Both the position numbers and the translations under genes were made by a program. A DNA stretch of 64,000 bases, taken from positions 558,001 through 622,000 of the forward strand of contig CP120455.1 in NCBI GenBank assembly GCA_034226945.1. Reading direction: 5' to 3'. Below, piece by piece: positions 4,765 to 44,549 of the stretch. Under the pieces are notes generated by a model, which was not told the origin of the DNA, searched no databases, and saw only the letters and a program-made list of their open reading frames with translations. Position 1 is the stretch's first letter, and each line of letters opens with the position of its first letter. This stretch comes from Picochlorum sp. SENEW3. Lineage: Eukaryota.

Positions 4765-6423
4765 TTATTCTTCCTCGTCGTCGCTATCATCCTGCGGCAC
4801 ACACTCTACACTAACATCCCACCTGCTGCCAGGAGCGCTAGAGGCCACATATTTGACAAATCTCATGAGTCCTTCATCGCGCAAAACAATGCTGATGGCG
4901 TTAAAGGCTGCAGAGATATTCAGAACGCCAGACTCGTCATCCTGTGCTTGTCGATACACTTCTGCTGGGCCATCCTCTTCTTCATCTGCAAGCAGATATG
5001 CTTCAAACCCGCCGCACTCTCCATCAGCCCAGGACGATTCGTCCATGGATGCTTCATCAACAAAGGTCAACACAACATCGAGACGAGGATCTTTGGTCAA
5101 GATACCATAATGCGCGACTGTATAATCTAATCCTGGTCGAAATCGTCGTATTTCTCTACGGTTCACCCCATCCATGGTCAATGTAGTGAAGCTGCGGATC
5201 AGGTTGGCAAACGGAACACTACATATAACCTTATCACAGAGCTCTCTCATTGTACTTCCTAACCGCCTATGCGTGGATTCCTGTGTTGATGCATCCCCAG
5301 TGAACTCTAGGTAACGTTGCATATGCGCCGGCCCTCGCAATGTCCAACCATCCTTCATCCCGGCATCATAGGCAGGCCTCTTCCCATGACCAACACCATC
5401 CTCTGCATCTATCTGTAGCATATCTCTCTGCACTTTTTCCGCAGTCTCCTCATTCAAAATATTTATTAAATGAATTGACCCATCACATGCAAACTTTTCC
5501 TGAATCTTTGCGGTTCCCCTTCCATCCAAGTACATGGGATTGATCCACTGCTTCAAATACTCGGCATCCTGGGCAGAAATTGTATACGGCTCATCATCTC
5601 CAACCACACGTTCAGTTCCAGACACGGACATGAATTCATTATACTCTTTAACAGAATTTCCTTTATCACCTCCACCACGCGATTGAAGCATTTGCAGAGT
5701 AGGCAACGCCGCATTCTCCTCCTTATCTGGCAATGGCCCATGAAACCAGCCCTGAAGACTCATCCGTGGCTTTTCATTCGTCATGACTTCCTGAATCGAA
5801 TGAAAGCTCTTCCCCGGCTGCACTTTAAACATTGCCATAGTATTCCAAATAGGTAACGCTGTAGCTGTCGGAATAGGATACGGCACCTGGGGTGCCTCTG
5901 GATCCTCTGGGTACAGCTCCAATGCGCCCCCATCCTCCTCACTCCAACCTTTATCAGGATCTGTCAGGTAAATAATATACGACACACGCCGATCCCCAAT
6001 CACATCATCATGACACAGCAGATGACCACCTACAGGATGAATATTACACGCGCAATCTGTCGTATCCGACAACTCACCACACCCTGTAATCTCTGACACA
6101 AACTCTCGAAACTCCTTGGAATATACCGCATCCCGCAACGCCAGCAAATTAGGAATCTTCTTTTTCTTTTCATCATCCAATGCATTTAAATTCGCAAGAT
6201 CCACTGTCTGTAACATTTTGAACAGATCAGTCTCCTTGTACGTAGCATCAAAATTCTCAATAATTTCCTCCCGAACCCTTCTCAGAATAGCATCATCACA
6301 AAAGTCTTTAATGATGCAATGTGGGTATGGATCATTCTGGCCATAGGCGTCTTTCATACTCCTGTACTCGTCTGAATTCCTATCAAATATCCCTTGACGC
6401 ATCACATGCGTCGCATCCATCAT
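4765..6423 (-). CDS. OGFOD1: Prolyl 3-hydroxylase OGFOD1/Tpa1 (2OG-Fe(II) dioxygenase acting on ribosomal uS12)
   Basis: Motifs HLLCHDDVIGDRRVSYIIYL, SFHSIQEV and RMSLQGWFH. C-terminal Ofd1 domain (RRFRPGLDYTVA, VLRDEGLMRFVKYV). The ATG at 6423 is preferred over the TTG at 6468. Confidence 0.9.
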   Translation of the reverse strand: MMDATHVMRQGIFDRNSDEYRSMKDAYGQNDPYPHCIIKDFCDDAILRRVREEIIENFDATYKETDLFKMLQTVDLANLNALDDEKKKKIPNLLALRDAVYSKEFREFVSEITGCGELSDTTDCACNIHPVGGHLLCHDDVIGDRRVSYIIYLTDPDKGWSEEDGGALELYPEDPEAPQVPYPIPTATALPIWNTMAMFKVQPGKSFHSIQEVMTNEKPRMSLQGWFHGPLPDKEENAALPTLQMLQSRGGGDKGNSVKEYNEFMSVSGTERVVGDDEPYTISAQDAEYLKQWINPMYLDGRGTAKIQEKFACDGSIHLINILNEETAEKVQRDMLQIDAEDGVGHGKRPAYDAGMKDGWTLRGPAHMQRYLEFTGDASTQESTHRRLGSTMRELCDKVICSVPFANLIRSFTTLTMDGVNRREIRRFRPGLDYTVAHYGILTKDPRLDVVLTFVDEASMDESSWADGECGGFEAYLLADEEEDGPAEVYRQAQDDESGVLNISAAFNAISIVLRDEGLMRFVKYVASSAPGSRWDVSVECVPQDDSDDEEE

Positions 6424-6924: not shown

Positions 6925-8065
6925 CCTCATGCATGATCATGATGGTGCATGTACGTGTGCTCGCAATAATTCGGGATCCCGAATTGATCCGTCCCGGTTT
7001 GAATTTGTTGCATGGTAGTTACGTCGCGTTTGTGTCTCGAATCGCCATAAACACTATTATATATTTAACAACTTTTCAATATGACTGATGCTATTTTGAT
7101 TGATGTTATTTTGGATAAAAGCATGAACATAAACCTTCATGACTTTATGCGATGGCAAGATTCTACCTCATACCTGCGCTCGAGTGTCGCGGATCAGCTT
7201 TTCAAACTTGGAAACAAGGTGGCATTCGTAGAAGCGCAAGCAATCGCCATGGTGAAGAAGGTCTGTGCTGAGTATGTGAAACCAAATCATGGGAACCTAA
7301 ACGCTGAGACCATAGTGCGGCTGGAGTCCGAGGAAGGATGGGACTGGACAGATGGTGGCAAGGAATATCTGGCCGACCGTCGTAAGTATTTGGCCCTCGG
7401 CACGTGGATTATTCTACAGAGACTCGAGTATGCATCGACAAATCATGGCCGCCTCTCCGCATGGCATATTCAAAAGCTCCAAAAGCTTCGTGGGTGGAGA
7501 TGGTCTGGTAATTTTAGACTTTCCGAGATTAATTTGATGGGCTCCTGGATAGAAAAGCAGCGTCGAGAGTACGCCAAACCCAACCACGGTCATCTATCCA
7601 AAGTAGACGTTCGGAAACTGGAATCATTTCCAGGATGGACATGGAGCGGTCCACTCGGCTGGAGAGAAGAAGCAACACGCACTCAGAAATGAGAGCACAG
7701 AGTTCTTCTTCTTTCAAAGAGTGAATTCAACTATGTCTGTCTGTATTTCGTCTTCATATGCGAGCATATGAGGATTATATATGTTTCAAAGAGAGAGATG
7801 TGCAATGAAGATTCCACCACTGTGGCGGTGAGATGATGAACCAAGAAGAGAACACCATGCATGCATGAACGCCGAAGAATACATCATGCAACTGAGGCAA
7901 TATACCTCAGCAGAGGATTTCATATCTTTTTACTCTATCCATGAATGCATGAAATTTGTAATGAAATGAACGACGTTAGTGTTACTGTCAACCAAATGTG
8001 AATCTGTGGCTGAATAGACATTCTCTCTCAATTCTGTGGCTGGGGGAACGCCGCTATGGACTCGC
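6925..8065 (+). repeat. Direct repeat copy 1 (~1.1 kb), left border of the NRPS island
   Basis: 6956-7053 is identical to 20811-20908 (98 bp). Similarity continues through the ORF and ~370 bp of 3' sequence. Confidence 0.9.
7081..7692 (+). CDS. Helicase-associated (HA) repeat protein, copy 1
   Basis: Three repeats of W-I-x-x-QR-x-EY...NHG-x-LS...KL...GW-x-W, resembling the HA (PF03457) motif. Intronless, with no helicase domain. Confidence 0.7.
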   Translation: MTDAILIDVILDKSMNINLHDFMRWQDSTSYLRSSVADQLFKLGNKVAFVEAQAIAMVKKVCAEYVKPNHGNLNAETIVRLESEEGWDWTDGGKEYLADRRKYLALGTWIILQRLEYASTNHGRLSAWHIQKLQKLRGWRWSGNFRLSEINLMGSWIEKQRREYAKPNHGHLSKVDVRKLESFPGWTWSGPLGWREEATRTQK

Positions 8066-8200: not shown

Positions 8201-11200
8201 TTAGGGATCCTGCAGAAAGCACATATACCTCATGAATAAAGGGCATAAACTCCTCGATGAAGCAGAATGAATGCACAGAAATGTATAAGACGGACTTGTT
8301 AGAGATATGAGCTCGTCTGAATGCTTCAAACTCATCGTCTTTTCCAGAATTCTAAGATTTAGAATCTTCAATCTGGCATATGGCACTGCTGGAATACCTT
8401 TCCAGCAGTTCGACCTTTCGATCCTTTCGCCCTGCACGAATGACAAATCAAAATTCAAGATTTGGCTGTCACATTAAAGAAGATAGCATTAGGCTGGGGG
8501 CATCGTACCTTCAATACCAGGGATAAATGATCGACCTGAGAGTCCGCAGACATGCTAGAGCCAGGTAAAAGTGTTGTCCGTGATCCAACCCATGCTTGAT
8601 TTCCTATTTCTGTTTTGATGTGTTCAATTACCTGATTTTCAAGTGTATGTCCACTTATTACTGATTCTTGTCCAATGATGGATCTATCGCCGATTTGGAG
8701 GAGGTCCATTTCAACCCGACGGAATGAGAAATAGCAAACATTCTCACCGATTTTTGCCCCCAATAGGCGTGCCCACCAAACAAGCCAGACGGATCCCCCA
8801 AGTTGATTAATCAATGAACATTGAAGCATAACATTTGTCAAAAGAATCCAGGAAGTATAATGGTAGGAATAAAATGGATGGACTGATGTTGTATATTTCC
8901 CTGCAAGTATCCATTTCAGACAGAACATGATGAATGCCTGCACGAACTCCCCAATGACAAATACTGGAGGAAAAATGAGAAGATACCAATATATTGAAAC
9001 CCTTCCATCCGCAAGCATTTTTCTGAACGCCCACAAAAGCAAGAATATCGAGACAACAGAGCAATATGTAAGCACAGGTTGGCAGACAGTCAATGCCACC
9101 TGTGAAACCCAATATCTGCGAAGCAGATCTTTTGGAGGCGTCTCTTCTTCCTCTGGTATATTGTTTTCCCGTAAATGCTTTGCTGGAGCACCAACCCAGA
9201 CAGTTCCAGATTTGAACCTGCTATTGGGTGATGCATATGTCATATCACCAAGAATGGAGTAACTTTCAACTGTCACTCCTTTTTCTATGACAGCAGAGTT
9301 AGTAACAGCAACTTTGGAGCCCATTGTTACACCCCATTCGAGGAGCACATTTGCCGCTATTTCAGTGTCATCTCCAAGACATATCAAGTCTGGCTCAGCG
9401 CAGTGAGTGAGTCTAAGCATGGGTCTCTTCCCTATTTTTGCTCCTAGCAATCTTAAATACAACGACATCCATACCGTGCCACTTAAATGAACCCATAAAA
9501 CTTGTATAGGTGCATCGCTCATCAATCTCGTCATGGCCCAATGTCTAAAAACTGTCCATGATGTAGGGACCTTACTCCTGGGTGGCCTACCAAGGACCAG
9601 ATGTTTAAGCAGAAGAAATTGAAGGTAGAAAACGTGCGGCATAAGGTAGAAGACAAATATTGGCATTAAAAGCATGATTGAAAGCCAAAACGTTTGTCCT
9701 ATGGGTGCTCGAATCAAATCAATGAAATTTCCCTCAACCTTGACACCATTGTCATATTTTGGCATCAGGCCAGTGTATAAGCCATAAGCACAGGCACAAA
9801 CAGTGCACAGGCAGATGACATACATGCATGTCAAGACGATCAGAAAGGTACATTGGAGAATTTTCACCAATGGAGACCGCAGGATTTTGGCCTCAGCTGT
9901 CAGTTCAGTCTGGACATTTGCACCTGAGCCAGCAAGTGCTTCATCATATTGCTTTGCATTTGCCGTTGACATCGGAGGAACCGCTGTGTTTTCTGGGACC
10001 CGAGAACCCCCTGGGACGAAGCATCTTTTTCCCAAATAGCAACCTTTGCCAATTTGAATCGGCTGAATTACCAGTAAACCTCCAGCTTCTATAGTTGCAG
10101 GCTCAATGGCAGCACCAGAATCAATTATGACGCCATCTTCAATGACCACCAAATCAGGCTCGTATATTGTTGCCCAGCTCTTCATCGTCACATTTTTACC
10201 TATTCTTGCACCAAAAAGTCTTAAAACGGCCGAGTGAAAGCACGTTTCTTGTAAAGAATTCGACCAAAAGTGCACAACATCCATGACTCTTTTAGACATC
10301 ATCCATCTGCAGTAGTAGAAACTCCAAAGAGGGTATTTACCCGGCTTGATTCGACCCCACATGATAATTCTCAAAATAAGCCAGCAAACAATAAACAGCA
10401 ATGGAAGGTCTATCATTACAACGGCGATTGCAATTCCTATTGCAGGCCAGGGGCCGAACCATGCCCAGCATTGCAGTATGACTGTTATAGATGGTAGGAC
10501 TACAGCTACCTGAATGGTCGGCCTAATGAAGAAGGACACAAACTGCATAATAATTGGCAGTACAGAATTCGAATCATTTGAAGACCATGCAGAAACAGGC
10601 TTGATTTCAGCTGTAGACTTTCCATCTTCGATCCCAAGGGTTTTCATTAGTGCCGCCAGCGACCTTACAGTTGGTGCATCATAAAGAGACGTTGAAGGAA
10701 GCATATCTGCATCCATTTCTGTTCGAATTGAACTGATCAAAATACCGGCAAGTAGTGAGGATCCTCCTATTTCCCAGAAATCATCAGTGACCCCAACATC
10801 AGTCACGTCAAGAATGTTTTCAAAAAGTTTCTGTAGCTTCTCTTCCAAGGCACCCTCAGGAGCAACATATTCATTTTTACCTTTCGCTGCTTGAACATCA
10901 TCCCATTTGGGCGTTGGAAGTGCTTTTGTATTTGCTTTACCTGCATTTCAATATCTCAATATAATAACTAGGAATGCAGTGAGCGAGATTGGCAGACCAG
11001 CAAAATATCAAACTTGCCTGTGGGAGCGAGGGGAATTTCATCCAATGTGATCATGACAGCCGGGACCATGTATACCGGAAGTTCTGCACGCAAATGCTGC
11101 ATGCATTTGTCTACTTCTATCTCAGACTGCAGGTATTAGAATATGTGACGGCAAGTTGTACAATGTCTCGTTTAAATCGTTTCTCGGCATACCTTGGGGG

Positions 11201-14200
11201 AACAATAGACAACAATTTGGTCTTGACTTTTTGGATCTTTTTTCACAAGTGCAACTACCTGTTTCACACCATTGCATGCACTTACAACAGACTCAATCTC
11301 CCCTAGTTCGATTCTGTAACCTTTTATTTTCACCTGATTGTCAATACGGCCCAAGAATTCAATGGAGCCTCCAAATCTCCATCTGACTAAATCACCAGTT
11401 TTATAGCATCTACCACTGTGAAATGGGTTATCGACGAATTTTTCAGACGTCAATTCCTCTTTCTGAAGATATCCACGTCCAACACCATCGCCGCCAATGA
11501 TCAGTTCACCGGGTACACCAACTGGGACTGGCATCAAGAATTTGTCCACAATATATGACTTGTAGTTTGGCATTGGGCCTCCAATAAGAACAGATGTATC
11601 ACTGGGTAGCTGCACTTGTGCGTTGCTACCGACTGTTGTTTCAGAAGGTCCATACGCATTTATAAAGCAGGGCACAGCGGCTGCCCATTTCTGCATGAGT
11701 GCAAGGGAACATGCTTCCCCAGCAGTCACCACCACTTCCAGACTTGGGTACATGTGGGGGTCCATTGTTCCTAAAACAGATGGCACGGCCCCAAGATGGG
11801 TCACTTTATATCTTTTCAAAGCCTGAGTCCAGTCTGGTGGTGTCCACAATATCAATGTAGCCCCTACCGCCAGACAAGGTAAGATATCCCCTGCATGAAA
11901 GCAAACAAAATACTTGGTAATCTAAAGGCGAGCTTTGCATCTATGGCATTGCACCAAATGGAACGTGTTATATTATGTTCAAAGGCGATGCAGTAGAACA
12001 GAAAAAGGTGAAGAACAAATCGCCACTTGCCTTGGGCCCCATCAAATCCAATTTTGAAAAATTGGAACTGCCTGGCATCTTTATGGATCCTGTACGTGGC
12101 AGATAGAGCGTGAACCATATTTATCGCGTTACAATGCTCAATCATCACTCCTTTGGGCCTTCCAGTGGTTCCACTTGTAAAAATTACGTATGCCAAATCG
12201 TTTTGAGTGGGCTTCACATGGCTCAACAGACCTGTACACTTTTCCTCTTCCTCAAAAATCCTTTCGACATCGAGCAGGATGACCCCTTTAGATATATCTG
12301 AAGACAGATTCCTGAACATATACTTCGAGGAAATCAAGAAGTTTGTCTCGATGTCTTCCATGATGTACTTGATCCTTTGCTCAGGGTAAGTTGGATCGAT
12401 CGGGACAAAGGCAGCACCTGCTCTTAATACTGCTACCTCTGAAACGATAAACTCAATACTTCTGTCTAGCAGGATACCGGCTATTTTCCCTGGCCCGATG
12501 CCGTGTTTTATTAAGACATTAGCAAGCTTGCATGACAATCTATCCAGCTCTCCATACGTAATCTCTCGACCATCATGTGCAACAGCAGGGTGATCAGGTC
12601 TGGATCTAGCTGCATCAATGATGACTTCATCCAGGGTTTTTTCATAAGAAACACTGATATGGTTATCATTCCACACATTTAAAACCAAATTTTCTTCCTC
12701 TTTCGTCATTATAGGAGCAGCCTCTGCTTTGATTGCTGGATTTGAGCAAGTCTCAGAAAGGAGCACATTGAAATGGGATGCAAACCGCTCAATAGTGTCC
12801 TTGCTGAAAAGGTCTGTGCAATATTCAATGCGACATTTTAGCCTATTTTCATACTCTGTTATCTCAAGTGTGAGATCAAATTTTGATGCAGTACTAGATG
12901 TCACCTGGAATCTTGAAAACTCCATAGTATCACTCACCCTTGTGGGCTGAGACTCTGCACGTTCTTGCAGGACCATCATGACTTGGAAAATAGGTGGATG
13001 TGAAGGGTTGCTGTCCCCCAACTCCTTGGCAATATGTACAAAACTGATGCCTGAATTCGAGAAGAGATCCAAAATAGTTCCTTGTACCCTTCTGAGGACT
13101 TCAGTAAACGAAGGATTTCCATTCAGGTCGGCTTTCACTGGTAGGGGGTTGACAAAATATCCCAATGTCTCCTCCACACATTTATGGTGGCGACCAGAGG
13201 TTGGAGTTCCAACAGCAAAGCATTTTTGCCCCGAATATCTAGAAAGCTGTATCTGAAAAACAGACATCAGGGCCACAAAAAGAGTAACCCCGTTCTCTGA
13301 AGCCACCCTTCTTATCAAATCTACGACGTCTTCTGCAACTTCAAAAGCATACAGATCACCTGAAGTGGATTGAATGGATGGCCGGGGGAAATCAATTGGC
13401 AGCTGCAAGGTCTCTATATCGCTAAGCTCCTTCATCCAAAATTTCATTTGATTTTTCATCACTTCAGAATCCAGAAGCTTCCTCTGCCAAAATGCAAAAT
13501 CAGTGTAGGAAACTCTCTCTGCTCGAAAAGCAAAAGAAGATGGATTACGAAGTCCATACAAACAGGCCAAATACTTTTGTATGAGAAACATGGACCAGCC
13601 GTCCGTGGCTATATGATGCATTACCAAGAGAAGGATGTGGTGGTTTTCACCAAGCTTTAGCAGTGTTGCTCTCACTGGTGGACCCAATCCCAAGTCAAAG
13701 GGTTTAGAGGTCAGTTTGGCAATAATCTGATGCAGAACCTTTGTGTCATATGGATTGACAGAAATAGTCGTAACATCCATTCCTTGGTACTCATCTGAAC
13801 TCAGAACCACAGGCTGATACCTCCCAGATGTTAGACTGAAGTATGTCCGGAGGGTCTCAAAGTTCATCCCAAGGAATTTTAAGCAGTCCTTCAATTTCTC
13901 GGTATCCAATGGCCCTTTCATATCAATACCAAAAGGAACATTATACGAAGAAGATTTAGGATCCAAGTGATACAGAGCAAGCATCTGTTCCTGTCCAAAA
14001 GACAAGACAAACTCCTGTCCTTGAAACGACTTTGCTACCTCTACTGGAGATTCATACTGTAATTGATCACCATTGATAACCCATGCTGCCAGATTTCGAA
14101 TTGTTTTGTTCCTTAAAATATCCGCGACATTGATCATCTTGTTTTTAAACTCTTCTTGCATAGCATACGCTAATCGAGCAGCTTTGATTGAGTTCACCCC

Positions 14201-16033
14201 AAATTCAAGTATGTCATCTGTTACACCAATGTTGGTCAGACCCAGCTCTTTCTCCCAGATTCGTGTGATTGACTCTTCCAAAGGGCCTTGGGCAGGCACC
14301 AAACTCTTCTTCAAGATTTTTCTTGCATCCAATGTAGTTGCATCGATAATCGGCCTCACCCCACTAGACACTAGTGATGAAAAAATAGACATACGGATTA
14401 TTTTATTGGTCGATGACCTGGGGAGCACTGACACATCATCAATGACATAAATTGAAGCCGGGACTTTGAAATCAGGAAGCATTTTTTTGCAGTACGATAG
14501 GACTGAATATGCCAAATTAGAATAATCATCGCCGTTACGCTTGGGCACTAGCACAAGTCCAACATCTTGTCCAAGCCATTGATCTGGTATTGAAAAGCAG
14601 TACGACTCTGCAGCACATTGACTCATATAGACAGTGTCTTCGATTTCAGTTGGTGAGATTTTCTCTCCTCCTTTATTGATAATTTCCTTTACTCGTCCAG
14701 TAAGTGTTAGATATCCTGCTTGGTCCAGATAGCCGAGGTCACCTGTTCTAAACCATCCATTGATGAAGGCATTTTTGTTTACTCCGTGGCCATCATCCAG
14801 GTAGCCGTCAAATACACTACCACCTTTGAGACAAATCTCACCGATCTCCCCAGTTTCTTTCTCCTTAAAGTCGTTTCCGCTATCAAGATCTAATATACAA
14901 ATTGAAATGGATCCTACGGGGATTCCCACAGAACCTGGGACTTTCTTTTGTGGCGTGAGGGGATTGGAGCACACAACAGATGCTGCTTCTGACATTGCAT
15001 AAGAGTTGATCACTCTAATACCCATTTTACTCTCGATTTCCAGTTCAATAGTTGAGCTCAAAGGTGCTGCAGCACAGCGAAGAAATCGTAACTTGCTTCC
15101 TTTGGGCATTCGAGACTGCTTGGACATATCAATACTCCATCTATCCAAAAGTGCAATGTAAAATGCTGGCACTCCTGTAAACCAAGTGACCCCCCTGCTG
15201 ACTACTTGGTCCCAAAATACCGATGAATCAAAAGATACTGGAAATACCAATTTGCCCCCTGAGCACAGGGTTGTCATCAAAGCAGGGCCAAGACCGCCAA
15301 TGTGAAAAAGAGGCATGCAGTGTAGATGGGCATCCTCCTGTCCAAGATGATAAAATTTGGCGAATGCCGTGACAGCGTCTGAAAATGCCCTGTGAGTAAT
15401 AGGAACTCGTTTAGGCTTGCTGGTGGTCCCACTGGTCAGAAGAAGAATTGCAACATCGTCCCCTGACGAAGTCCCCTGATCCAGGAACTGCTCCATTTCC
15501 TCTGGAAGTGCAGTCGTCAGTGCTGAGTATTTCCTGGTCAAACCACGCCTATTTACCTGGGACGTGCTTCTAATTAGGCTTTTGGATTTATAATTTCTAT
15601 TACCTTCTGTGCACAGAGTGATGGGCAGTATAGGATCTCCCTTCAAGATCAATCCAGCCCGTATCACAGGAATGCCCAGCCTTTTGGCTGCCTCAACTCC
15701 ATTATGCACATTGAGGGAACTTTCATCGGGTACAATCAGACAAGCCGCGTTGTAGTCATTCAGAGTATGCAGAAAACTCTCTTCAGGTATGGCATTGTTG
15801 ATTGGGGCGTATACATGACCCATCACCACGCCTAAAAATACGACAACGTCCTCCACGTGGTGCCCTGGGGCAGTGGCTACAACCTGTCCAGAACTTATTC
15901 CATATTCAAGCAACTGCTGATGGATAGAGCGAGCTAGATGGTTCAACTCCATATATGATAACGATATTTCGCCATTATCAGTTTCAATTGCCACTCTTGG
16001 CGAACACGTTATCAGGCTAGCTACAGAGGTCAT
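8201..16033 (-). CDS. Multimodular NRPS (~2490 aa): acyl-CoA-ligase-like A1-T1-C-A2-T2 plus Pls/PosA-type terminus (3x TM + left-handed beta-helix)
   Basis: A1: TSGTTSKPK, PLFHIGGL, YAMSEA, GWFRTGDLG, GGEKISP. T1: GVNS. C: HHIATDGWS. A2: TSGTTGRPKG, NAYGPSET, YKTGD, QVKIKGYRIELGEIE. T2: GGSS. Terminus: three LxGAKIG/hexapeptide blocks ending WxGxPA. Introns at 11891-12030 (GC-AG), 11127-11192, 10941-11017 (GC-AG) and 8432-8508 all restore the frame. Confidence 0.9.
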
Positions 16034-16389
16034 ATTGTAGCAAAAATCACCTTCCCAATCGAACTAGCAAAACAGTCGTAGTCCGAACGCCACCAGTGGA
16101 TCGAATATGATATATTGACGGGGACTTAAGACGTGATCTAAATCCAATGTCTTCGTATACAAACGTGATTGCTCTTTGGGAGCGAGATTTCCTGCAGGAA
16201 ACCAGCGAACGCGCTTGTGGATAAAATTCACCGTGCAAACAAAAATGGCCATTTGTGCACCATATCAGGCATTATAACACAGAAAGATTACCTTTTCGAC
16301 TATTATTATATTATGAATTCTAATGCATCGTCTTAGACACATGACGTAAATTTGCAAACCACGCCACGACTGATGACGTTATGCATCGA

Positions 16390-16411
16390 CGTGCCTAGCA
16401 TGCTAGGCACG
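16390..16411. promoter_or_regulatory. 22-bp perfect palindrome plus an adjacent CACGTG in the divergent NRPS/tyrosinase intergenic region
   Basis: CGTGCCTAGCATGCTAGGCACG followed by CACGTG. The regulatory role is inferred only from position. Confidence 0.35.
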
Positions 16412-16619
16412 CACGTGCACGAGCCATCCGTTTACAGGATGGCCTGCGAGTATGATTCATGGACAAAAATGCATAGCACTGACTCGAAATGTGACATGCT
16501 CTATTTCATATCTAATATCAATTCTTTAGTCAAAGGCGTTAACTGGAGTTGTCCAGACTCGGTGCAACCTTTGAGGTTTCCACTGCGGAAGTGATACGTT
16601 CTCAGCGTTTGCGTTCCAT

Positions 16620-18455
16620 ATGAAGATGGGGCCTTCGTCAAAGTATGCGTCTTTTGCTTTGATTTCTTTGTTATTTGCAGCCGTCTTTCCCATTGGAGGA
16701 GAGACCCAGGCAGCCTCTGTCTCGAGGCCGACTGCAGGTCTCTGGCCAAGGGATATTTCTCCTCGTTTGAATATCCTTACCATGCTTGAGCCGGAGCATA
16801 AGGTTGAGTTTGATTTGCTGGTGCAAAGCTTGACTGCCATACAAAACATGTCTCCAGAAGATCCCAGGTCATTCTTCGCCATTGCTGGCATTCATGGCAT
16901 GCCATTTGAGGAGTACAACTCATCAACAGTGCCCGGATTTCAATGGACACCAGACATGCCTCCACCTCAGTGGGGGGGATACTGCCACCACGGCGATGTT
17001 CTGTTCCCAACATGGCACAGAGCATACATGTTACAGATTGAAAATTCCATTCTGGAACAGGCAACTTTGATCGCTAGGACATATCAAGATGAAAACGTGA
17101 AGAGGGACTACTTGGAAGCAGCAAATCGGCTTCGATTCCCATTCTGGGATTGGGCAGATGATGTGACAGCAACAGAGGGTATACCTGATGTATTTACAAA
17201 CAAGACGCTAACAGTGAATCTGCCACCATATAATCTGCCCACGCCAGTAGCCAACCCGATGCGTGCCTTCTCGTTTACAAAGAGTGTTGGGACACCTTTT
17301 GGAGTTGGTGATCAATACAATCCTCAAAATGGAGCCTTATACACAGTGCCGCCTGGCCATATTTATATGGCTCCAGGATATTCTACAGTAAGGCAGCCTG
17401 TATTTGGATATGCAACAAATGATACAATGTTGAACGAATCAGTGAAGATTTCTGCGGCAACCACCTTCATCCCAGGCCTGTACGATCTGTTCCAGGTTCC
17501 AGATTTCAGGGTGTTCTCGAACCATTATGCCACTTCGCCAATCAAAGGAAATCAAAATGCAACCCAATTTTTATACTACGCGTCTTTGGAGGGATTACAT
17601 GACAGTATCCACAGGGCTGTGGGTGGATTGGGAGGCCACATGAGATTCAACACCATGGCTGGATTTGACCCAATTTTCTTTTTCCATCATTCTAACGTCG
17701 ACAGAATTTTTGCTTTATGGCAGCGTATGTACCCAGATCAATGGATAAAACCATCAACTGCTATTCAAGGGACATTTACTGTGCCATCAGGGTCCACTGT
17801 TGATGAGAATACAGCATTGATGCCATTTTACGCCCCATCAGGCAGTTACTATGTCTCAACTGATCTAAGAGATGTTACACAACTAGGTTATACCTACCCA
17901 GAACTTATGAATGCTGATTCGAAGGGGATTGGCTCTGTTGAATTTCGCAAGGAAATATTGAACCAGTATCGACCAAATAAGGAAGACGCGTTCACCACTC
18001 GCTGGTATCTGGGATTGAGGGATGTTACAGCAAAACAGCTTCCTGGTGCATTTAGCATCCACGTTTTCATAAATCCAGATGAAACTCCGACAATAGACAC
18101 TTCATTGCAGAACAATCCAAATTATTGCGGATCTGCTGATTTCAGTTCCGGCAAAACTACTGCAGTCCAGAAGTTTGATGGTCAGGTATCTCTCACCAAG
18201 TGTTTCGTCAACCTATATTTGACAAAGTATCCAGTTATTGGCAACCCAAGCACAGCAAACATCACAGATGCTCTTGCTACTTTGGCAGGCTACCCATTGC
18301 TTTATTCAGATCTCTACTATGTGATTGAAGGCTCTGATGGATCTGACTTTTCTGAGTACGTCACCATGTCTGACAATACCATATTTTATGTTTACGAGCG
18401 AGGAGGTGAGACATATAGAAATTCAGTTCCCAAAAGGCCAAACGTTATTGGCTAG
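16620..18455 (+). CDS. Secreted tyrosinase (type-3 copper oxidase) with C-terminal shielding-type domain
   Basis: N-terminal signal peptide. CuA: AGIHGMP, YCHHG, FPTWHRAY; also PFWDW. CuB: LHDSIH, FDPIFFFHHSNVDR. LGYTY motif. Intronless. Confidence 0.92.
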   Translation: MKMGPSSKYASFALISLLFAAVFPIGGETQAASVSRPTAGLWPRDISPRLNILTMLEPEHKVEFDLLVQSLTAIQNMSPEDPRSFFAIAGIHGMPFEEYNSSTVPGFQWTPDMPPPQWGGYCHHGDVLFPTWHRAYMLQIENSILEQATLIARTYQDENVKRDYLEAANRLRFPFWDWADDVTATEGIPDVFTNKTLTVNLPPYNLPTPVANPMRAFSFTKSVGTPFGVGDQYNPQNGALYTVPPGHIYMAPGYSTVRQPVFGYATNDTMLNESVKISAATTFIPGLYDLFQVPDFRVFSNHYATSPIKGNQNATQFLYYASLEGLHDSIHRAVGGLGGHMRFNTMAGFDPIFFFHHSNVDRIFALWQRMYPDQWIKPSTAIQGTFTVPSGSTVDENTALMPFYAPSGSYYVSTDLRDVTQLGYTYPELMNADSKGIGSVEFRKEILNQYRPNKEDAFTTRWYLGLRDVTAKQLPGAFSIHVFINPDETPTIDTSLQNNPNYCGSADFSSGKTTAVQKFDGQVSLTKCFVNLYLTKYPVIGNPSTANITDALATLAGYPLLYSDLYYVIEGSDGSDFSEYVTMSDNTIFYVYERGGETYRNSVPKRPNVIG

Positions 18456-19206
18456 ATGACGTTACCCTAATTAAAGGTAAAGGAGCTTCACGCTTGAAAA
18501 GGCATCCCGTGGTTCCTCAACCCATCCCACAAGAGATGGGTGACAGGAATTGTCCTGCAGATGTCCCTATCCCTGCAGGCATGTTTATCAAGATGCCACA
18601 GAAATGATAGTGCATGGCATCTGAAATTTTATTTCCCAATAATATATCAACGCATTTATGAAAACCTTAAATTGCCAAAAGATTCGAATGATGATGCAAA
18701 GAGATTGATTACACGAGAATTTACAACTATACATGATCCTCCTCAAGTGCATGCAGCATGGCTGTCACAATGGTGCTGTTAGCCAACATGAAACATATCA
18801 GGCTTCCATGTGCAGAAAGATCGATCAAACTGGTCTAGACCTGATGAGATCCGTATCTAGATCGATCCAGCATCATCGATCGGATATACGATGATGCCAG
18901 CTGGCATCCCTAGCCTGCAGGCTAGGGAGGATCCATATTTCATTCGAAATGCTCCATTTAATGGATCATATATTTCTTGTCGGATTTGAACCTGCGAGGG
19001 CTGAAATTGCTCCTGATTTTTTCACCATATCGTATTGATACTATAGGGTTGTTCTTTGGCGGACAAAAAAGGCATTTAATCTGCCAGAGTTTCCGTTTGG
19101 ACTGCACATCGATCGAGCCTCTGACGGACGGAGGACTTTCATAGTGCATTTGGCCTCTCTTGGCCACGATTAGGTTTTGGGTAGTCGTGGATTTGATTTT
19201 ATAGAG

Positions 19207-20624
19207 ATGATAGACTCATCACTGGCCACGGACCACCACATGCAGCTTGATCCAGTGACAGCTCAGTTGCTGGACACAACTGACACGCCTACCGAGCGGG
19301 CTATCAAGGTGAAAGAGTTCAACGAGTACTGCAACAAATGTATTAATGACATAAGAAAGTGTTTGTCGCGGCAGTTGGAGAATATGGCCAAAAAGCGCAA
19401 GGAAATGTTCGGTGAGGACCACTTGGGCAAGGTGAGAATTCATGATGTGGTCTGCCATGTCATCCATCCCGACGGTCCGAGCGCCGTTTTCACGAGTTCC
19501 GCGTTTGACCACGGTGCGTAGTTTGATAATTTCAACACCATCAATACGGAAAGTCCGTGAGGTGCTTCTGACAGTTGCTTTGGGTGATTGCAGAGTTGGT
19601 CAAGGAGCGCATGGTGCAGATTACCAATTTCCTGCGCTCTTGGCAAGAGGTGTACACGACCATTCTTTTTCAAGGAGAAGAGAGATTTGTGGGTAGTGTC
19701 TCTGATCCTGCCGAGATGTCGGACCACGAAGCGCTTGCCAAGCTGCTGAGGGAACAGAAGATGAAGTTGGAGGAAGAGGAGATGCAGAAATTAAAGAGTG
19801 ATCAGAGTATACGGACTGGTGTGGAACTCTTCGGTACGCAGCGCGCCATATGCTGACCGATATTAGTGTATTAATACAACCTATATGAACGCAATGAATC
19901 GTTTTCATATTATTGTGCAGTATCTGCGGGAGTGGGAAAGGATGAAAGTGTGCCGTTTCAGAGTCGAGTTGAACAACTGGCTACAGTCCTCTCAGTGGAA
20001 CCGGCGGATATCGAGGGCGATGCCAAGCGAACGTTGAAGTACGGGGTCACTAAAAACCTTTATAAAGTTGCTGCACAGAAATCCGTTGGTTTGGACTTCC
20101 ACAAGACGATGGGCGAGTGCCCATTGTACAATGAGACAGCAGATGGTCAGGAGGACAAGTGTGAAAAGTGCGCACGCGCCAGGAGACTTGTTGGCTGGCC
20201 AGGCAGACTGAAGCGCGAATATGTGAACCCAAAGCACGGGGAAAAAGCATACGAGTACAAATACATTCCCTTTATTTTCCCCTCAAAGCTGAATGCGACT
20301 GTCAAGCAGATGCTGGTTCAGCATTTCAAGAAGGAACTCCCCAGTGTGTGGGCGGCATGCAAGGGTCTGCACCACGATGGGCAATCTCCTTCAGCGGATG
20401 ATAGTATGTCAGTGGAGGCTACACATGGGGATGGAGGTGACGTTATCAGCAAAAATCGACAACAGATAGGAGGAGGAAGGGAAGGGAGGATCCCAGATGG
20501 CCGGCAAGGGCCTCGGGAGAAGGAGCGATCACCCAACGATGCGGGGCAGGGGTTGGAAACGATGTCTGAGAGAAATCATCAGCTTTTAAGAAAGGCAAAG
20601 CGCCCCTTGGAGGAAGGCCAGTAG
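19207..20624 (+). CDS. Hypothetical 3-exon protein
   Basis: ORFs 19177, 19575 and 19932 join in frame through introns 19514-19593 and 19834-19920. Cys cluster (CPLY..CEKC). Start uncertain. Confidence 0.6.
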
Positions 20625-20794
20625 TGTCCGTGGCGAGTGCACAGCAATGACAGTCCTTGGTTGTTCGCTCGTCACTGTTTTGAGCAATGCATTCATAGTT
20701 ATTCAATGAAACTTGTAATGAAAGGCTTGGAAGGGTGAGTCCCACCTCCTCTTTGAATATGACAATATCAATCAGAACGTTGCTGGCAAAGCCA

Positions 20795-21910
20795 CCTCAT
20801 GCAAGATGCATGTGCTCGCAATAATTCGGGATCCCGAATTGATCCGTCCCGGTTTGAATTTGTTGCATGGTAGTTACGTCGCGTTTGTGTCTCGAATCGC
20901 CATAAACAGTTTTATATACAGTATATATTAAATATATTGCAACTTTTCAATATGACTGATGATATTTTGGATAAACGCGTACCAATATTCCATCGTAATA
21001 CTGCGCTCCGGCACGGTTCTACCCCATACCTGATCTCGAGCGTCACGGATCCGCTTCTCCAACTCGAAAACGAGATGGAATTGCAAGAAGCGAAATCAAG
21101 CAACCTGGCGAAGATCGCCTGTGCAGAGTATGCGAAACCAAATCATGGGAATCTAAGCGCTGAGATCATAGCGTGGCTGGAGTCCAAGGAAGGATGGGAC
21201 TGGACAGATGGTTGCAAGGAGTATCTCGCCATCCGTCGCATGGACCTGTCCTTCGGTATGTGGATTAATCGACAAATGCTCGAGTATGCATCGACAAATC
21301 ATGGCCGCCTCTCCACATGGCATATTCAAAAGCTCCAAAAGTTTCGTGGGTGGAAATGGTCTGGTAATTTTGATACTGACGACATGGAGCCGCTGGCCTC
21401 CTGGATAGAGAAGCAGCGTCGAGAGTACGCAAAACCCAACCACGGTCATCTATCCAAAGTAGAGGTTCGGAAACTGGAATCATTTCCAGGATGGACGTGG
21501 TCCGGTCCACTCGGCTGGAGAGAAGAAGCAACGTGCACTCGGAAATGAGATTACAGAGTCCTTCTCTTCTTTCGAGGAGTGACATCAAATGTGTCTGCAT
21601 CCCGATTGCTTTTGTAAACGAGAAAATAAAGAGTACATATTCAAGAATTACAGATGCGCCGAAAGGAATCAATGTCATGATGACGAACCAAGAGAACACC
21701 ATGGCATCCAACATGCCTGCATGAATGCCAAAGAGAACATCATGCAACTGAGACAATATACCTCAGCAGAGGATATCATATCTTTTTACTCTATCGATGA
21801 ATGCATGAAATTTGTAATGAAATGAAAGATGTTAATGTAAATCAGATGTGAAACTGTGACTTAGAGACTCCTCTCAATTCTGTTACTAAGTGAACGGCTT
21901 GATAGACTTG
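20795..21910 (+). repeat. Direct repeat copy 2, right border of the NRPS island
   Basis: Collinear with 6925-8065. Shares the AATTCGGGATCCCGAATT palindrome and the 3' block ATGAATGCATGAAATTTGTAATGAAATGAA. Confidence 0.9.
20952..21548 (+). CDS. Helicase-associated (HA) repeat protein, copy 2
   Basis: Paralog of 7081-7692 with a near-identical C-terminus (EYAKPNHGHLSKVxVRKLESFPGWTWSGPLGWREEAT). Confidence 0.7.
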   Translation: MTDDILDKRVPIFHRNTALRHGSTPYLISSVTDPLLQLENEMELQEAKSSNLAKIACAEYAKPNHGNLSAEIIAWLESKEGWDWTDGCKEYLAIRRMDLSFGMWINRQMLEYASTNHGRLSTWHIQKLQKFRGWKWSGNFDTDDMEPLASWIEKQRREYAKPNHGHLSKVEVRKLESFPGWTWSGPLGWREEATCTRK

Positions 21911-22321: not shown

Positions 22322-24427
22322 ATGGTGGAGACGGAGCGTTCTGAGGTCCTGACTGGCGTGGCCATGGGGACCCGAGGTGGCGTGGTGCGTCGTTGTTCGT
22401 TTTCCAGTGCCGTTGGTGCTGAATTAGCAGTAGATGAGTGGATTTAAATCATATAGATGCATTCATGTCGTCATATACTTGAGAGACTGGCAATTTTGGG
22501 ACTGAATGTTTCTTTGCGTGATGTGCAGATGGAGGGAAGCATACAACTTAGTTCAAAAGGTATCGTGTGGAAGCGAAGCGGCGGAGGTAAGACGGTCGAA
22601 GTGGCATCTGACGATATCAAACGTATGATGTGGACAGAGATGCCGCGTATCGAAAATTCTACAGGGGTGAAATCAACGGTGCTAGTGGTAATTCGAAAGG
22701 ATGCCAATGGATCTGTGAATTTCATAGGATTTCCAAAATCCAAGCTAGCCGCACTTCAAACCATGGGACTAGGTGAAGCCAAAGAGACAAAGTTAACGAC
22801 CAAAGGCGCCAACTGGGGCTCTATTGAGATGCAAGGGGCGAATGTCATTTTTAAGAATGGGGACATGCCTGTTTTTGTCGTCCCTCTGTCAGATGTGTTG
22901 CAAGCACAGCATGGGCGTGAAGAAGTAACTGTTCAGCTTCCAGTGGATGATCAATCTGTGGATCGTAATGATGACGCCTTGGCTGGATTGTCCTTCTATG
23001 TGCCCAAGGCATGTGAAGATTTTGGCAAGGCTGAAAAGGATGGTGAAGAGTTGCCTGCTAGTAAAAAGTTTTATGATGTTTTGAAATCGTACACCATGGA
23101 TGTTGGGGCAGGTGATATCATCGCATCGTTTGACTCTGTTGGTGTGCAGCTTCCAAGAGGCAGATTTGATGTGGAGATGTATCCATCAAGTTTTCACTTG
23201 TTGGGTCAGGCACACGATTTCAGAGTGCAGTACAGCTCTATATTGCGTATTTTCATCTTGCCTCGATCAAATGCACCGCAGACTATTGTGGCAGTGGCGT
23301 TGGATCCACCATTAAGAAAAGGACAAACAACATACCCCATGGTCCTGTGTCAGTTCCATAATGATGAAGAAATGACCATAGATTTGCAATTGAGCGAAGA
23401 ATCTTTGAAGAAATTGAACGATAAAGGAGCCAAGTTGACGAAAGAAATGACTGGTCCCTCCCCGGATGTGTTTGCCAAGACTCTGAGGGGTCTGTCTGGA
23501 GCCAAACTGACACGCAATGGTGCATTCAGGGATGCAACAGGGGAAGGGCATGCAGTTCGTTGCTCGTACAAGAACGACGACGGTCATTTGTATCCTTTGG
23601 AAAGAGCGTTCTTTTATCTGTTGAAGCCACCCATGTTGATTCCATACGACGATATTCGAAGCGTGGAGTTTATGAGGCAGACAACAGGTATATCTGCTGC
23701 CAAGACGTTTGATCTTCTGATAAAGATGAAAGGTGTTGCTGATGATGTACGGGAGCAGCAATACTTATTCCGAAGTATTCCTCGATCAGAATGGACCAAC
23801 TTGTTCGAATGGATTCAGGCCAAGGATCTCAGAGTCGAAAATCTGAAAGAGGTGCAGAATGGTCCATCAGCTCCAAGCCCCTATGGAGAAGGCATGGTTG
23901 GCATCGATCCTGCTCTTGCGGCAATTGATGCACAAGAGAGTGATGAAGATGAATACGAGGAGCCAGACGAAGACTTTGAGGCTTCAGAAAGTGAGAGTGA
24001 TGGTGACGATAGTGTTCTGTCTGATGAGGAGGGAGCACCAGATGTTGTTCCAGAGACCAAACCAAAGCGCAGCAAGCCAGTGTCAGAGAGAGAGGGTGGC
24101 AAAAAGAAGCGCAAAAAGAAGGATAAAAATGCACCCAAGAAGGCATTATCTGCGTTTATGTGCTTCTCGAACAGCGTGAGGGAGAAAGTCAAGGAAGACA
24201 ACCCTGGTATTGCATTTACCGATGTTGCCAAAAGGATTGGAGAGATGTGGAAAGAGCTGAGTGACGCAGACAAGGCTCCATATGAAGCTATGGCCAACGA
24301 AGACAAGGAACGATATGCCAAGGAAATGGCCGCATATAACGCTGGGCAGACCGAAGCAAAGCAAGAGGAACCGAAAGAAGAGGTGAAGACTGAGCAAGAG
24401 GACTTTTCCATCAAGGATGAACCATAA
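22322..24427 (+). CDS. SSRP1: FACT complex subunit SSRP1
   Basis: Motifs GANWG, PRGRFDVEMY and LDPPLRKGQTTYP, an acidic tract and an HMG box (DKNAPKKALSAFM). Intron 22385-22528. Confidence 0.95.
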
Positions 24428-30719: not shown

Positions 30720-31254
30720 ATCGTTATCAGACCCTTATATACACGTCAATGGTCTCAATCGAGCGCTCTTGGAATGTTTTCGCTCATGGTTTCAAAAACC
30801 AATTCCTCTCCACATGTCTATCCATCTTCCAAAACAATACACGAATGTCCAAATACAGTCCTATAAAAATCAAATATTACATGTAGATGTACAGATGGAG
30901 CGTGTCGATGCCTAGGCCAAATTCAAACGCACGCCTGTCGATCGATATCCGACTGGCCCATTAAATCAACCATCTGATGGTACGCATAGTTTCTCAAGAG
31001 TATGGCATCCGCATAGTAATAGTCTTGCATGGATTCAGAGCATGATGAAAAGAATTCTATTTTTAAAACACAACTGCATATAGGTTATTCTCCTTGCTGA
31101 TGCCCTACAGGCTGCACAAGTGTCATGCCAGCGTGGAACGCAATTGAATTTCACAAGAGCAGGGAATGGCATCTATATGCAAAGGAAAACGATTGAAAGT
31201 ATCTATAGAATTTTACAAAAGAGGTGGACGATAGATTGGAGGTGTAGAGAGGCG

Positions 31255-34200
31255 ATGATGGGGACACGACGTGTTGGTGGGCACCCTGTGGGTGGTGGTC
31301 GAGTAGGGGCTGTGGATGCTCTGTGTATCAATCCACGGGTCAAGTCGATGATTGGAAGGGAGCGTATATATACCGGTGGTGGACGGGGTTTTCAGGCGTG
31401 GCGTCGAATGATGTCTGTGAGTAGTGATGTTGAATGGGTTGATGAGCAGGCAGAAAGATACGGGGTTGATGATGAGAGAGCACCCCCGCAGTATTCCAGC
31501 CAGACGCACGTGTCGGTGGAGGGGAAGATTATGAAAGTTCAATATAGATCAAGTGAGAGTGGGTATTCCGTTCTCAAGGTGGGAATAGATCCAGAGAGGG
31601 CAACAGATATTCCCAATCTTGCACTTGAGGGGTCTGGATCAAAGTTTCGGTATGGTCAGAAGAAGAGGCGGCGAGATTTTTCGATTACTGTTGTTGGTAT
31701 TTTGCCAGTGTTGCACGTTGGACAAGGGGTGACTGTGCAGGGAAGTTGGACAACACATCCTACGTATGGGATGCAGTTGAAGGCACAGCAGGTTGAGACA
31801 AGGACACCGAGTGGACATGAGGACCTTGTGTCGTTCTTGTCTGGGGGTGCGATTCATGGAGTTGGACCATCGACGGCGGTTCGGATGGTGGAGGTGTGGG
31901 GAACGGATATTCTTGATGTGCTTGATTCTTCAGATGCTGTTGTGAAATTGCAACAGTGTGATGGCATTGGGAAGAATAAAGCTGTTGCGATCAAGTCTGC
32001 GTGGGATTGTGGGAGAGATGCTCGGGATGGAGCAAAGTTTTTATGTGAAGGTGGTATCCCGGCTGGTCCAGCGCAGAGAGTGGCTGAATTGTTTGGAGGG
32101 GATACGCAAAGCAAGGTTGATGCTGATCCGTACTCAACATTGAGTCGTTTTGGGATTTCTTTGGATGCTATTGAAGCGTTTGCAGTCAAGACGGGTGTCA
32201 TGTCAGACTTTGTGTCTCGTATTTCATTGGTTATAACACGGTGTTTGATGGCATCGTCAAATCGAGATGGACATGCGTATTTGCCATGGGGGGGACTGGA
32301 AGGCCTTGCGTTGACAAGATTAGAGACCTTGTCGCATCGATTTGGAGGTACGGAGTATATATCATTTGGATGGAGTATTATACAACAGGAATAAGAAGAC
32401 CGAGTTCCATTTTTATTGTTCATGCAGGTGATTTTAGAACAGTGACCCCTGATCAGTTGAAACGAGTTGCCTGGCATATGTGTCACAAGGGAACATTAAT
32501 TTGTGAGACGGGGGACTTGTTTCATGGATCGAATTCAAATGTTGGGAGTATTTCTGTTCCTTCTGTATCTGTTGATGAAATGCGAGGGATCCTGCATGGG
32601 GTGACAAAGAGGCAAATGGAATCATTGCTGGATACGCATGGTGAGAATTTGGTTGGGATTCTTTCCGGTGATGAGGAAGAGGCAGTCGACTTGCTGAAGA
32701 AATGCCCTGGCATTGGGCCCAAAACTGTGGAAAAAATTTTAAATGCATGGAAAGAAAATAGGCCTGACACTCAGGGTAGAGCATTGTTGCATGGTGTATC
32801 AATCATTGAAGATTTGGAAATGGCAAACATAGATTCCCCATGTGAATGGACAGACTCTGTGCGGTGTTACTTACCGCAATTTCATAAAGCAGAAACAACT
32901 ATTGTAGATTGTATCACTGGAAAATCTTCAATCTCACAGGATATTTCACCTCCTAGATCTCAAAAGATCAAGCAATGGATTGACATGAATCAAGAGACAA
33001 CAAACGTTGTTCTATCCAAGGGGCAGCGTGCTGCAATCGAATTGGCTTCAGATGCACCGATTCTTGTCATAACAGGGGGTCCTGGATGTGGTAAAACTAC
33101 AGTATTGCAGTATATTGTCAAATTATGGTGTGCTCAAGGAAAGATGGTGCATATTTGTGCTCCAACTGGTCGAGCAGCTCAGCGAATTGGTGCAATTCAG
33201 AACGTGGAACCGAGTACAATACATCGATTATTAAAGTATAGACCAAAGAACTCGTCAGAAGCACAGTCAGGAATGTCCTTGGAATCTTTGGATGAAGATG
33301 AGATAGACTGGGGAGAAATGGACTGCTTTGAGCATGGTTTGACAAACAAACTTGAGTCCGATGCCGTTTTAGTTGATGAAGCGTCAATGCTCAGTCTTCC
33401 TCTTGCGGCTGCATTGATGCAATCTCTAAAAACCGAGACCCAGCTTATTCTTGTCGGGGATGTTGACCAACTTCCCCCTGTAGGCCCTGGTGGTATTCTA
33501 GATGCCGTAATATCATCTGGTGTTGTTCCTGTTGTCGATCTTCGTGAAATTTTCAGGCAAGAAACTACATCGAACATTGTTACATCTGCTTTATCTGTGC
33601 GAAGTGGAAACTATCCACCAGTGCCCGAGTTACATCTAGATGGAGGGAATGCTTTCGATCAGATTGTGCATCAGAAGGGATCATTTATTGTCAGAACTGG
33701 TGACAATATCATCGAGTCGGTTGAGCGCATTGTCGAAACCATGATCCAAGAACCTGGAGCGGATATTAGTGACACACAGATCATTAGTCCAATGAGAAAA
33801 GGTCCCGTTGGCGTTGGGGTATTGAATCCAAGGATCCAGGCTATTGTAAATCCTCCCGAGCTTGGAAAACTAGAAGTCTCTAGAGGGGATGTGATCCTAC
33901 GAATGGGAGACCGAGTATTGCAGCTACACAACGACTATGACAAAGATGTCTACAATGGGGACCAGGGAACCATTGTGGATGTGGATCCAGTGCTCAAAAA
34001 GGTATGGGTGCAATTTTCCAAAGGTTTTGGTGGAGACAGCCAATTGCTTGAATATTCAGGCATGGAGCTGTCTCATCTGGATTTGGCATATGCGGTGACT
34101 GTTCATAAAGCCCAAGGTGGTGAAGCAAAGAATGTTGTTATGGCACTGTCACATCATCATGGCAGGCTTCTGACACGCCCTTTGCTATACACTGGCATCA

Positions 34201-34751
34201 CACGAGCACGGGAGACCTTGGCCATGGTGGTTGGATCGACTTTGATAGACCCGGTCTCGGTTGCTATCAACACAGTGGGTATGGAGACACGCTTGTCATC
34301 TTTGGTTGAACGGCTAGTTTCCAAAGCAACAGCGCTGCATATTCCCCACCATGAGGTTGCAAGCTTTTTTGATGAGCAGGAAGAATGTGGCAATGCCAAC
34401 TGTGGTGTCCAAGAAGTTCTGAATGAATTACAAGTACGGAAGAACACAGCAGACAAAATAATCAAAATATTCGAGTCTCAGAATCTTCCTTGCGTGGATG
34501 TAGCGATGCTTCAAGCCAACATTCAATTGGTGTCCGACATTTGTACATCTGGACAAGCCTCCCCTGACCAAGTGCTCGAATCTGTACCTTTTCTTATGGT
34601 CGCTTCCCAAGACTATCTTAGCAAGAGTCTAGAATTTAGCACGAAAATACATGATGGCATCATGTCCTCATCTCCAGGACAGGATGATGACAGCAGCAGT
34701 CTTGTCATGCAGCTTGCACACCTCAGACATGCTTGGCAGGACAATCAATAA
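31255..34751 (+). CDS. RecD2-like SF1B ATP-dependent DNA helicase, probably organelle-targeted
   Basis: N-terminal OB fold (HPTYGMQ) and HhH motifs; TGGPGCGKTT, APTGRAA, VDEASM, GDVDQLPPVGPG, IFRQ, AYAVTVHKAQG, YTGITRAR. Intron 32348-32427. Start approximate. Confidence 0.9.
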
Positions 34752-44146: not shown

Positions 44147-44549
44147 TTTTTTTTGTTGTGTTTTTTTTGTTGTGCACTTTACTACTACAGTAAAGTAGTA
44201 TCCCCACATTCCTGGACCCGATTCGTTAGGGCGGGAGGGACGTTACGCATTTTTCTCTCTCTACAGTCCATTAAATTTCCTGAAACAAATATATTATTAA
44301 ACCTTATTTCAATGCGCAGATTTTGATATTACTTTGAGGCAAAATGATGCACTGTACGCGAAGAACGAGGCTATCGAGTGGAAATGGCTCCGTTTGCCCG
44401 GTCGCCTCCACCCGTTGATGGGCGTAGATGTCCAAAACGCATAACGCTCAAACCTTTATCGTGAAAACAACAACGATTACCAGCAAAACCATTGTTTATC
44501 ATGCTCTCAGGTTGCCATGGCCAAGAGAACTTTCTAACAGATGTAAAAT

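Follow-up and report, generated by a model that had tools for sequence, protein, structure and literature searches.

In Aspergillus terreus, the nonribosomal peptide synthetase (NRPS)-like protein MelA and TyrP, a tyrosinase of the endoplasmic reticulum (ER)/Golgi, suffice for Asp-melanin (PMC5735947; papers are cited by PMC number throughout). Among the Pls/PosA synthetases, the terminal domain of PosA has been modelled as three helix pairs plus three left-handed beta-helices (PMC10522769), and chlorophyte polyphenol oxidases (PPOs) of the fungal long type have already been noted in general (PMC11803259). We analyzed a window of 64,000 nucleotides (the whole stretch of DNA examined, positions 558,001 to 622,000 of contig CP120455.1) from Picochlorum sp. 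SENEW3, a trebouxiophyte green alga with a eukaryotic genome of 13.85 Mb on 14 contigs, and found that an NRPS gene (8201..16033, minus strand) and a tyrosinase gene (16620..18455, plus strand) lie in a block enclosed by direct repeats. With a probability of about 0.45, we read this block by analogy as a two-enzyme phenol-modification module, MelA/TyrP-like with a different synthetase, in which an acyl-tyrosine unit would be handed to a membrane acceptor and then cross-linked oxidatively. The original prediction for this locus placed the two genes head-to-head about 590 bp apart, which is confirmed: they are divergent, both are intact, and the gap from start to start is 586 bp. As far as sequence can tell, both genes are real, and their functions and cooperation are treated below as putative.

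The NRPS begins with an ATG at 16033 and encodes about 2,490 amino acids in the order adenylation (A, acyl-CoA-ligase type)-carrier (T)-condensation (C)-A-T-Pls/PosA-type membrane domain; a domain scan found no thioesterase domain. Its exons (16033-12031, 11890-11193, 11126-11018, 10940-8509, and 8431-~8201) are separated by at least four introns, two of them GC-AG (12030-11891 and 11017-10941) and two GT-AG (11192-11127 and 8508-8432). The spliced frame is open over 2,490 amino acids, of which the first 2,459 are identical to the NCBI-annotated protein P0354; the last ~30 differ from it, so that the 3' end of the gene (last ~30 codons) is uncertain. Introns 1 and 2 stand at the same positions in P0365, an orthologue of 73% identity. 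The first carrier domain (T1, 14078..14272) has the serine motif FGVNS, the condensation domain (12692..14017) has an intact HHIATDG, and the second carrier domain (T2, 10648..10839) has GGSSL; with both carrier serines and both A10 lysines in place, the gene is intact by its sequence and shows no sign of decay, and a phosphopantetheinyl transferase match is present elsewhere in the genome. Both GC-AG introns share a GCAAGT donor, and gene callers based on open reading frames (ORFs) break the NRPS at these introns, a possible reason for its under-reporting.

The first adenylation domain, A1 (14400..16033, minus strand), belongs to the oxalate-CoA-ligase family, and the solved structures closest to it are the oxalate-CoA ligases AAE3/Pcs60 (E 1e-84), with 6qjz, 5ie0, and 8aff as best PDB matches. 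In the grass pea oxalate-CoA ligase, oxalate is contacted by Ser289, His319, and Lys500 (PMC8905533). Aligned to 5ie0, A1 keeps the catalytic lysine (Lys500) but has changed two of these three contacts (S289 to A and H319 to S), as well as H216 to G. An oxalate starter was rejected because the Ser289 and His319 contacts are both replaced, which would leave A1 as an acyl-loading domain for a carboxylic acid other than oxalate. Its pocket signature, H[IV]GG / xAA, is common to uncharacterised fungal A-T proteins that bear the same type of terminal domain, and His216 is kept in 102/102 bacterial-type starter domains scored. A standalone oxalate-CoA ligase with its oxalate residues intact is encoded on another contig (C5:476400-479500), next to a lookalike, judged by eye, of oxalyl-CoA decarboxylase/2-hydroxyacyl-CoA lyase; the two are likely an oxalate-degradation pair.

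The second adenylation domain, A2 (approximate limits 10930..12630, minus strand), is of the amino-acid type and spans introns 1-3. Its pocket code is DGGGVAAVGK, with Asp235 present; positions 235-239 were placed by the FD core motif, which we take to mark them. Compared with seven tabulated codes (PMC11355689), it matches best the tyrosine code of CepA, DASTVAAVCK, at 6/10 positions, and the phenylalanine code of GrsA at 4/10. In the GrsA mutant W239S, a small residue at position 239 shifts preference from phenylalanine towards tyrosine (PMC11355689). These comparisons are a weak but specific pointer that the amino acid loaded by A2 would be bulky and aromatic, with tyrosine or one of its derivatives most likely. 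A2 is also the best-conserved domain relative to the orthologue P0365 (84% versus 69-73% for the others), with its pocket unchanged. For the earlier suggestion that the NRPS product could be oxidised by the tyrosinase, the code comparison supports a pocket compatible with tyrosine.

The terminal domain (8400..10620, minus strand) is predicted by AlphaFold to consist of three repeats of a long helix pair and a left-handed beta-helix (predicted template modelling score, pTM, 0.83), and its Foldseek matches in the PDB, LpxA and sugar O-acetyltransferases, are restricted to the beta-helix part. This PosA-type predicted fold (PMC10522769) is what favors a second explanation of the gene, a Pls/PosA-type synthetase making a secreted cationic isopeptide polymer that would be unrelated to the tyrosinase or later cross-linked by it. 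All known cationic homo-polyamino-acid (CHPA) synthetases, however, carry Glu at code position 3 (PMC10522769), where A2 has Gly; the NRPS has an extra acyl module and an intact C domain; and its terminal domain scores 226 bits on TIGR02353, whose cut-off is 423, when scored on exon 4, which omits the last ~25 residues. Having two modules and no diamino-acid Glu, the NRPS is not a poly-lysine-type synthetase, and we regard the polymer explanation as most improbable. In a tree built with FastTree only (39 rows with long branches, most plant rows being omitted), the terminal domain clusters with proteins of plants, fungi, and dinoflagellates and with its in-genome paralogues, and not with bacterial Pls. 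The same type of domain is found on fungal CoA-ligase-type A-T proteins (P0142, P0146, P0151-P0153, and P0158), on a large plant oxidase-AMP-ligase-catalase-like fusion (plant rows within P0140-P0165), and on dinoflagellate proteins (P0122 and P0125).

Among 50 long relatives, a single one combines two A domains with an intact C motif (P0128, a metagenomic protein whose two A domains are identical), and among 267 NRPS matches to the N-terminal part none has the terminal domain. Within these word-based searches, which can miss relatives, the acyl-A-T-C-A-T-membrane design turned up in this lineage alone. The SENEW3 genome itself encodes two further NRPSs with a Pls-type end, on contigs C8 and C2, which are 23-29% identical to the NRPS and lie among housekeeping genes. 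The C8 paralogue (C8:369020-378149) reads C-A-T-C-A-T-Pls-type end; its two A domains are nearly identical through an internal duplication of ~3.3 kb, and its GC content at third codon positions (GC3) of 0.55 is well above that of its genome neighbors, pointing to a recent duplication or an assembly artefact. The C2 paralogue (C2:464627-472369) reads A-T-C-A-T-Pls-type end, and a reported in-frame stop falls in what appears to be a GT-AG intron. In neither paralogue did the C domain yield an HHxxxDG motif.

The tyrosinase is a single ORF of 611 amino acids (PF00264, E 5e-41), colinear with annotated relatives in the alignment, and the only PF00264 match found in the genome. It had been described as intronless with complete CuA/CuB histidines, and indeed all six are present (CuA H92/H124/H133; CuB H327/H331/H357), together with a Cys-X-His motif (C122-x-H124). 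A waterkeeper Glu and an Asn or Asp as first activity controller serve as criteria in this family, with Glu plus Asp as in monophenolase-active fungal long PPOs (PMC11803259); the algal enzyme has E324 and D328 at these places. A hydrophobic N-terminus (amino acids 7-32, by Kyte-Doolittle only) and seven N-glycan sequons point to a likely signal peptide and secretory routing. In the predicted model, which is of moderate quality (predicted local distance difference test, pLDDT, 61), a beta-rich C-terminal domain is formed that has no match to Pfam PF18132, and the best Foldseek match, over the full length, is to latent mushroom AbPPO4 (E 5e-25, TM 0.51). Thus, profile matches, alignment, and predicted models support the pairing foreseen by the original prediction of a membrane-type NRPS end with a catalytically complete, secretory-type tyrosinase.

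In the proposed mechanism, A1 would adenylate a non-oxalate carboxylic acid and load T1, A2 would charge T2 with a bulky aromatic amino acid, tyrosine or a derivative being the likeliest, and the C domain would join both units to give an N-acyl-aminoacyl thioester on T2. Since the alpha-amine would then be capped by the acyl group, the unit could not chain as poly-lysine does, and we infer that the terminal domain is most likely an acyltransferase. The membrane beta-helix domain would hand the acyl-aminoacyl unit to an amine or hydroxyl acceptor at the membrane, and, after a presumed crossing of the membrane, the secretory-pathway tyrosinase would oxidise its phenol to a quinone and cross-link or pigment wall material, or act in defence.

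The block that holds both genes was missed in the first reading of this locus, and the enclosure of the pair by 1.1-kb direct repeats, as well as the suggested presence/absence polymorphism of the block, are new here. The left repeat, R1 (6956..8050, plus strand, 1.1 kb), and the right repeat, R2 (20811..21896, plus strand), are 80% identical, with their first 98 bp identical, and each contains an ORF with an HA domain (7081-7692 and 20952-21548). They are the only two copies of the repeat found in the genome and enclose the NRPS and the tyrosinase, as well as one or more orphan ORFs (19174..20624, plus strand) that have no Pfam, NCBIfam, or Atlas match and have diverged copies in related strains. 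Outside the block lie the housekeeping genes Ofd1 (4765-6423, minus strand) and SSRP1 (ORF 22457-24427, plus strand). An 18-bp perfect palindrome lies within the identical 98-bp start of both repeats (6968-6985 and 20823-20840) and is possibly a recombination or regulatory site.

Three signs suggest that the block is present on some chromosomes and absent from others as a unit, and the NRPS and tyrosinase appear to be gained or lost together, with a depth artefact or missed annotation as the alternative for each sign. In sequencing run X12, both genes lie on a single unbroken contig of 11.4 kb with a depth of 73.8; the depth is 70.1 over 19310-20795 and 130-151 on flanking contigs, these being contig depths and not copy numbers. 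A phased diploid Picochlorum assembly exists (PMC9615354), in which Ofd1 occurs under both of two tag series, and the tyrosinase (5/5 members read) and NRPS (10/10 read) are restricted to one of them, where their tags, 006296 and 006297, are neighbors; we take the two series to be two haplotypes. In P. renovo, Ofd1 is found in a cluster at 98.6%, and the fully read clusters hold no P. renovo tyrosinase or NRPS. The right part of the block differs between strains; in the phased assembly, five tags separate the tyrosinase from the HA gene on the right. Two joints, 7062>21000 (X12) and 7845>21690 (X9), fit an empty site and were not counted as proof, since one lies inside the identical 98 bp and the other is at depth 2. 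A bolder version of the module, which we consider rather unlikely, is a portable, repeat-bounded, polymorphic cassette whose new NRPS design grafts acyl-tyrosine or acyl-DOPA onto a wall or surface acceptor for tanning by the secreted tyrosinase.

The strongest rival to the module is that the two genes are independent passengers. Like its paralogues, the NRPS would then make a wall decoration or an acylated metabolite, the tyrosinase would act on other phenols, and their adjacency would come solely from both having landed between Ofd1 and SSRP1, at a variable site bounded by repeats. We hold this to be quite plausible, if somewhat short of even odds. Much of what favors it also weighs against our reading. 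Both paralogous NRPSs (C2 and C8) are without a neighboring tyrosinase, and head-to-head pairs are ordinary here, making up 6/28 adjacent pairs in a hand-picked list of window genes, three of the six being spaced 584-657 bp; the arrangement by itself is within chance expectation. Co-loss is no proof of shared function, because everything that the repeats enclose, the orphan ORFs among it, would go together; the right part of the block varies as well. The halved depth is seen in one of four runs (the other three, at depth 2-7, show no halving), and that run may not be independent of the phased assembly. Moreover, the reading of the A2 code is an analogy drawn with bacterial domains of ~30% identity, three of its Gly positions match no listed code, linkage of the pair has been demonstrated only at ≥97% identity, and the nearest relatives of the two genes differ. 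Arguing for the module and against independent passengers are the adjacency of a tyrosine-compatible A2 pocket to the sole tyrosinase of the genome, the parallel identity ladders of both genes (97 / 85-92 / 73-80%), and the fungal precedent.

The divergent region between the genes (16034..16619, 586 bp) contains two TGACGT motifs, one CACGTG, and a 22-bp palindrome (16390-16411), which we rejected as a special feature, the window holding four palindromes with arms of at least 10 bp. No GTAC, which we take to be the copper-response core, occurs between the NRPS and tyrosinase starts. Two sequencing runs guessed to be RNA behaved as DNA, without splice joints, and have no bearing on expression.

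The original prediction also named conserved linkage as a check, and the linkage does hold in close strains at about 97% identity; it further raised joint horizontal acquisition, which our results do not support. A single transfer of a ready-made cluster from a fungus or bacterium would fit the intronless tyrosinase, whose nearest named non-algal relatives are Gigasporaceae fungi (33-39%), and the A1 pocket shared with fungal A-T-Pls-end proteins in place of the His216 of bacterial-type starters. The NRPS, however, belongs to a deep family with two in-genome paralogues and shares two intron positions with the 73% orthologue, its terminal domain falls with eukaryotic and in-genome proteins in the FastTree analysis, GC3 is host-like (0.35-0.40 for both genes versus 0.37-0.49 for neighbors), and neither tree names a donor. 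The close tyrosinase relatives (58-97%), including that of P. soloecismus, form a clade of nine rows (SH-aLRT 98) in a tree of 125 rows made with quick IQ-TREE. This clade, well removed from the bacterial-type one, sits to the fungal side of a long branch, and the tree does not resolve its place relative to arbuscular mycorrhizal (AM) fungi and Dikarya. It is not nested within any sampled fungal group, and the tyrosinase may have an old fungal-type origin. A1 takes no resolved position, nor does A2 under a mixture model on 30 rows (careful search unfinished), where a FastTree grouping of A2 with the in-genome paralogues (support 97) did not hold. Scans of GTDB, IMG/VR, and JGI retrieved no such pair or architecture, the JGI metagenome locus scan giving one distant tyrosinase locus among 55 candidates; giant bacterial NRPSs dominated the matches among 50% representatives. 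We consider one joint transfer highly unlikely.

No paper on the pair described here was found in a literature search covering listings and abstract starts, with subscription papers outside its scope. Tyrosinase goes unmentioned where the term was searched in the accessible parts of Picochlorum genome papers (PMC6141220, PMC11092101, PMC12458973, and PMC12366059), whose annotation or expression tables may hold a mention, and NRPS terms have no mention in the accessible part of PMC11092101. The words tyrosinase and tyrocidine are absent from a published per-gene expression table and three other supplements, two of them only short texts. In an automated survey (PMC10794256), NRPSs of Picochlorum are listed as A-T-C-A-T, with no terminal domain, and "tyrosinase" occurs 0 times in the supplements.

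Elsewhere in the window, a RecD2-like helicase with bacterial-type domains (31177-34751, two overlapping frames) adjoins a Spo11/TopoVI-A gene and a RAMA-domain ORF. A Ulp1/C48 protease ORF is convergent with a SWIM zinc-finger ORF (45256-48287), and together with a short inverted repeat pair (44270-44371 and 49671-49772) these ORFs resemble a Mutator-type transposon.

Next to nothing is known of what green-algal NRPSs make, and Picochlorum is an alga tractable for production. The terminal domain of poly-lysine synthetases is without a solved structure or mechanism. Here it occurs in algae, fungi, plants, and dinoflagellates, on eukaryotic proteins whose loaders are of the acyl or a non-diamino-acid type; a version with two modules, the product of which would not self-polymerise, offers a direct test of its role. 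A block carried by some haplotypes and not by others would also let wall toughness, pigment, or grazer resistance be compared between naturally occurring forms. If the portable-cassette version were true, it would give quinone sclerotisation a green-algal counterpart, and Pls-type terminal domains would be general membrane acyltransferases, beyond polymerases.

Compared with known systems, the NRPS shares with Pls/PosA synthetases an A-T followed by a terminal domain of ~700 amino acids with the predicted helix pairs and beta-helices, and differs in its extra N-terminal acyl-A-T-C module, Pls/PosA being single-module A-T-terminal enzymes, in Gly for Glu at code position 3, and in a sub-threshold TIGR02353 score at ~20-26% identity. 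The fungal NRPS-like "coenzyme A synthetase" proteins (the six named above) combine an A domain of the oxalate-CoA-ligase family, with the same H[IV]GG / xAA pocket, with a T domain and a terminal domain of the kind seen here, but these uncharacterised proteins have one module, without a C or second A domain, and are ~20-23% identical in the terminal domain. With fungal long PPOs of type l (AbPPO4 and MelB), the tyrosinase shares the six His, Cys-X-His, waterkeeper Glu, Asp controller, and the full-length fold match of its model; it differs in its separate nine-member clade, the missing PF18132 match, and the absence of the C-terminal CxxC that P0024 carries. MelA, a soluble enzyme of one module with a thioesterase, acts on an aromatic keto acid, whereas the NRPS here has two modules, an amino-acid-type A2 (Asp235), and a predicted six-helix membrane beta-helix end in place of a thioesterase. 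What the algal pair would share with MelA/TyrP is the layout of a two-protein phenol-oxidation system, an adenylating synthetase on the cytosolic side and a tyrosinase in the secretory pathway.

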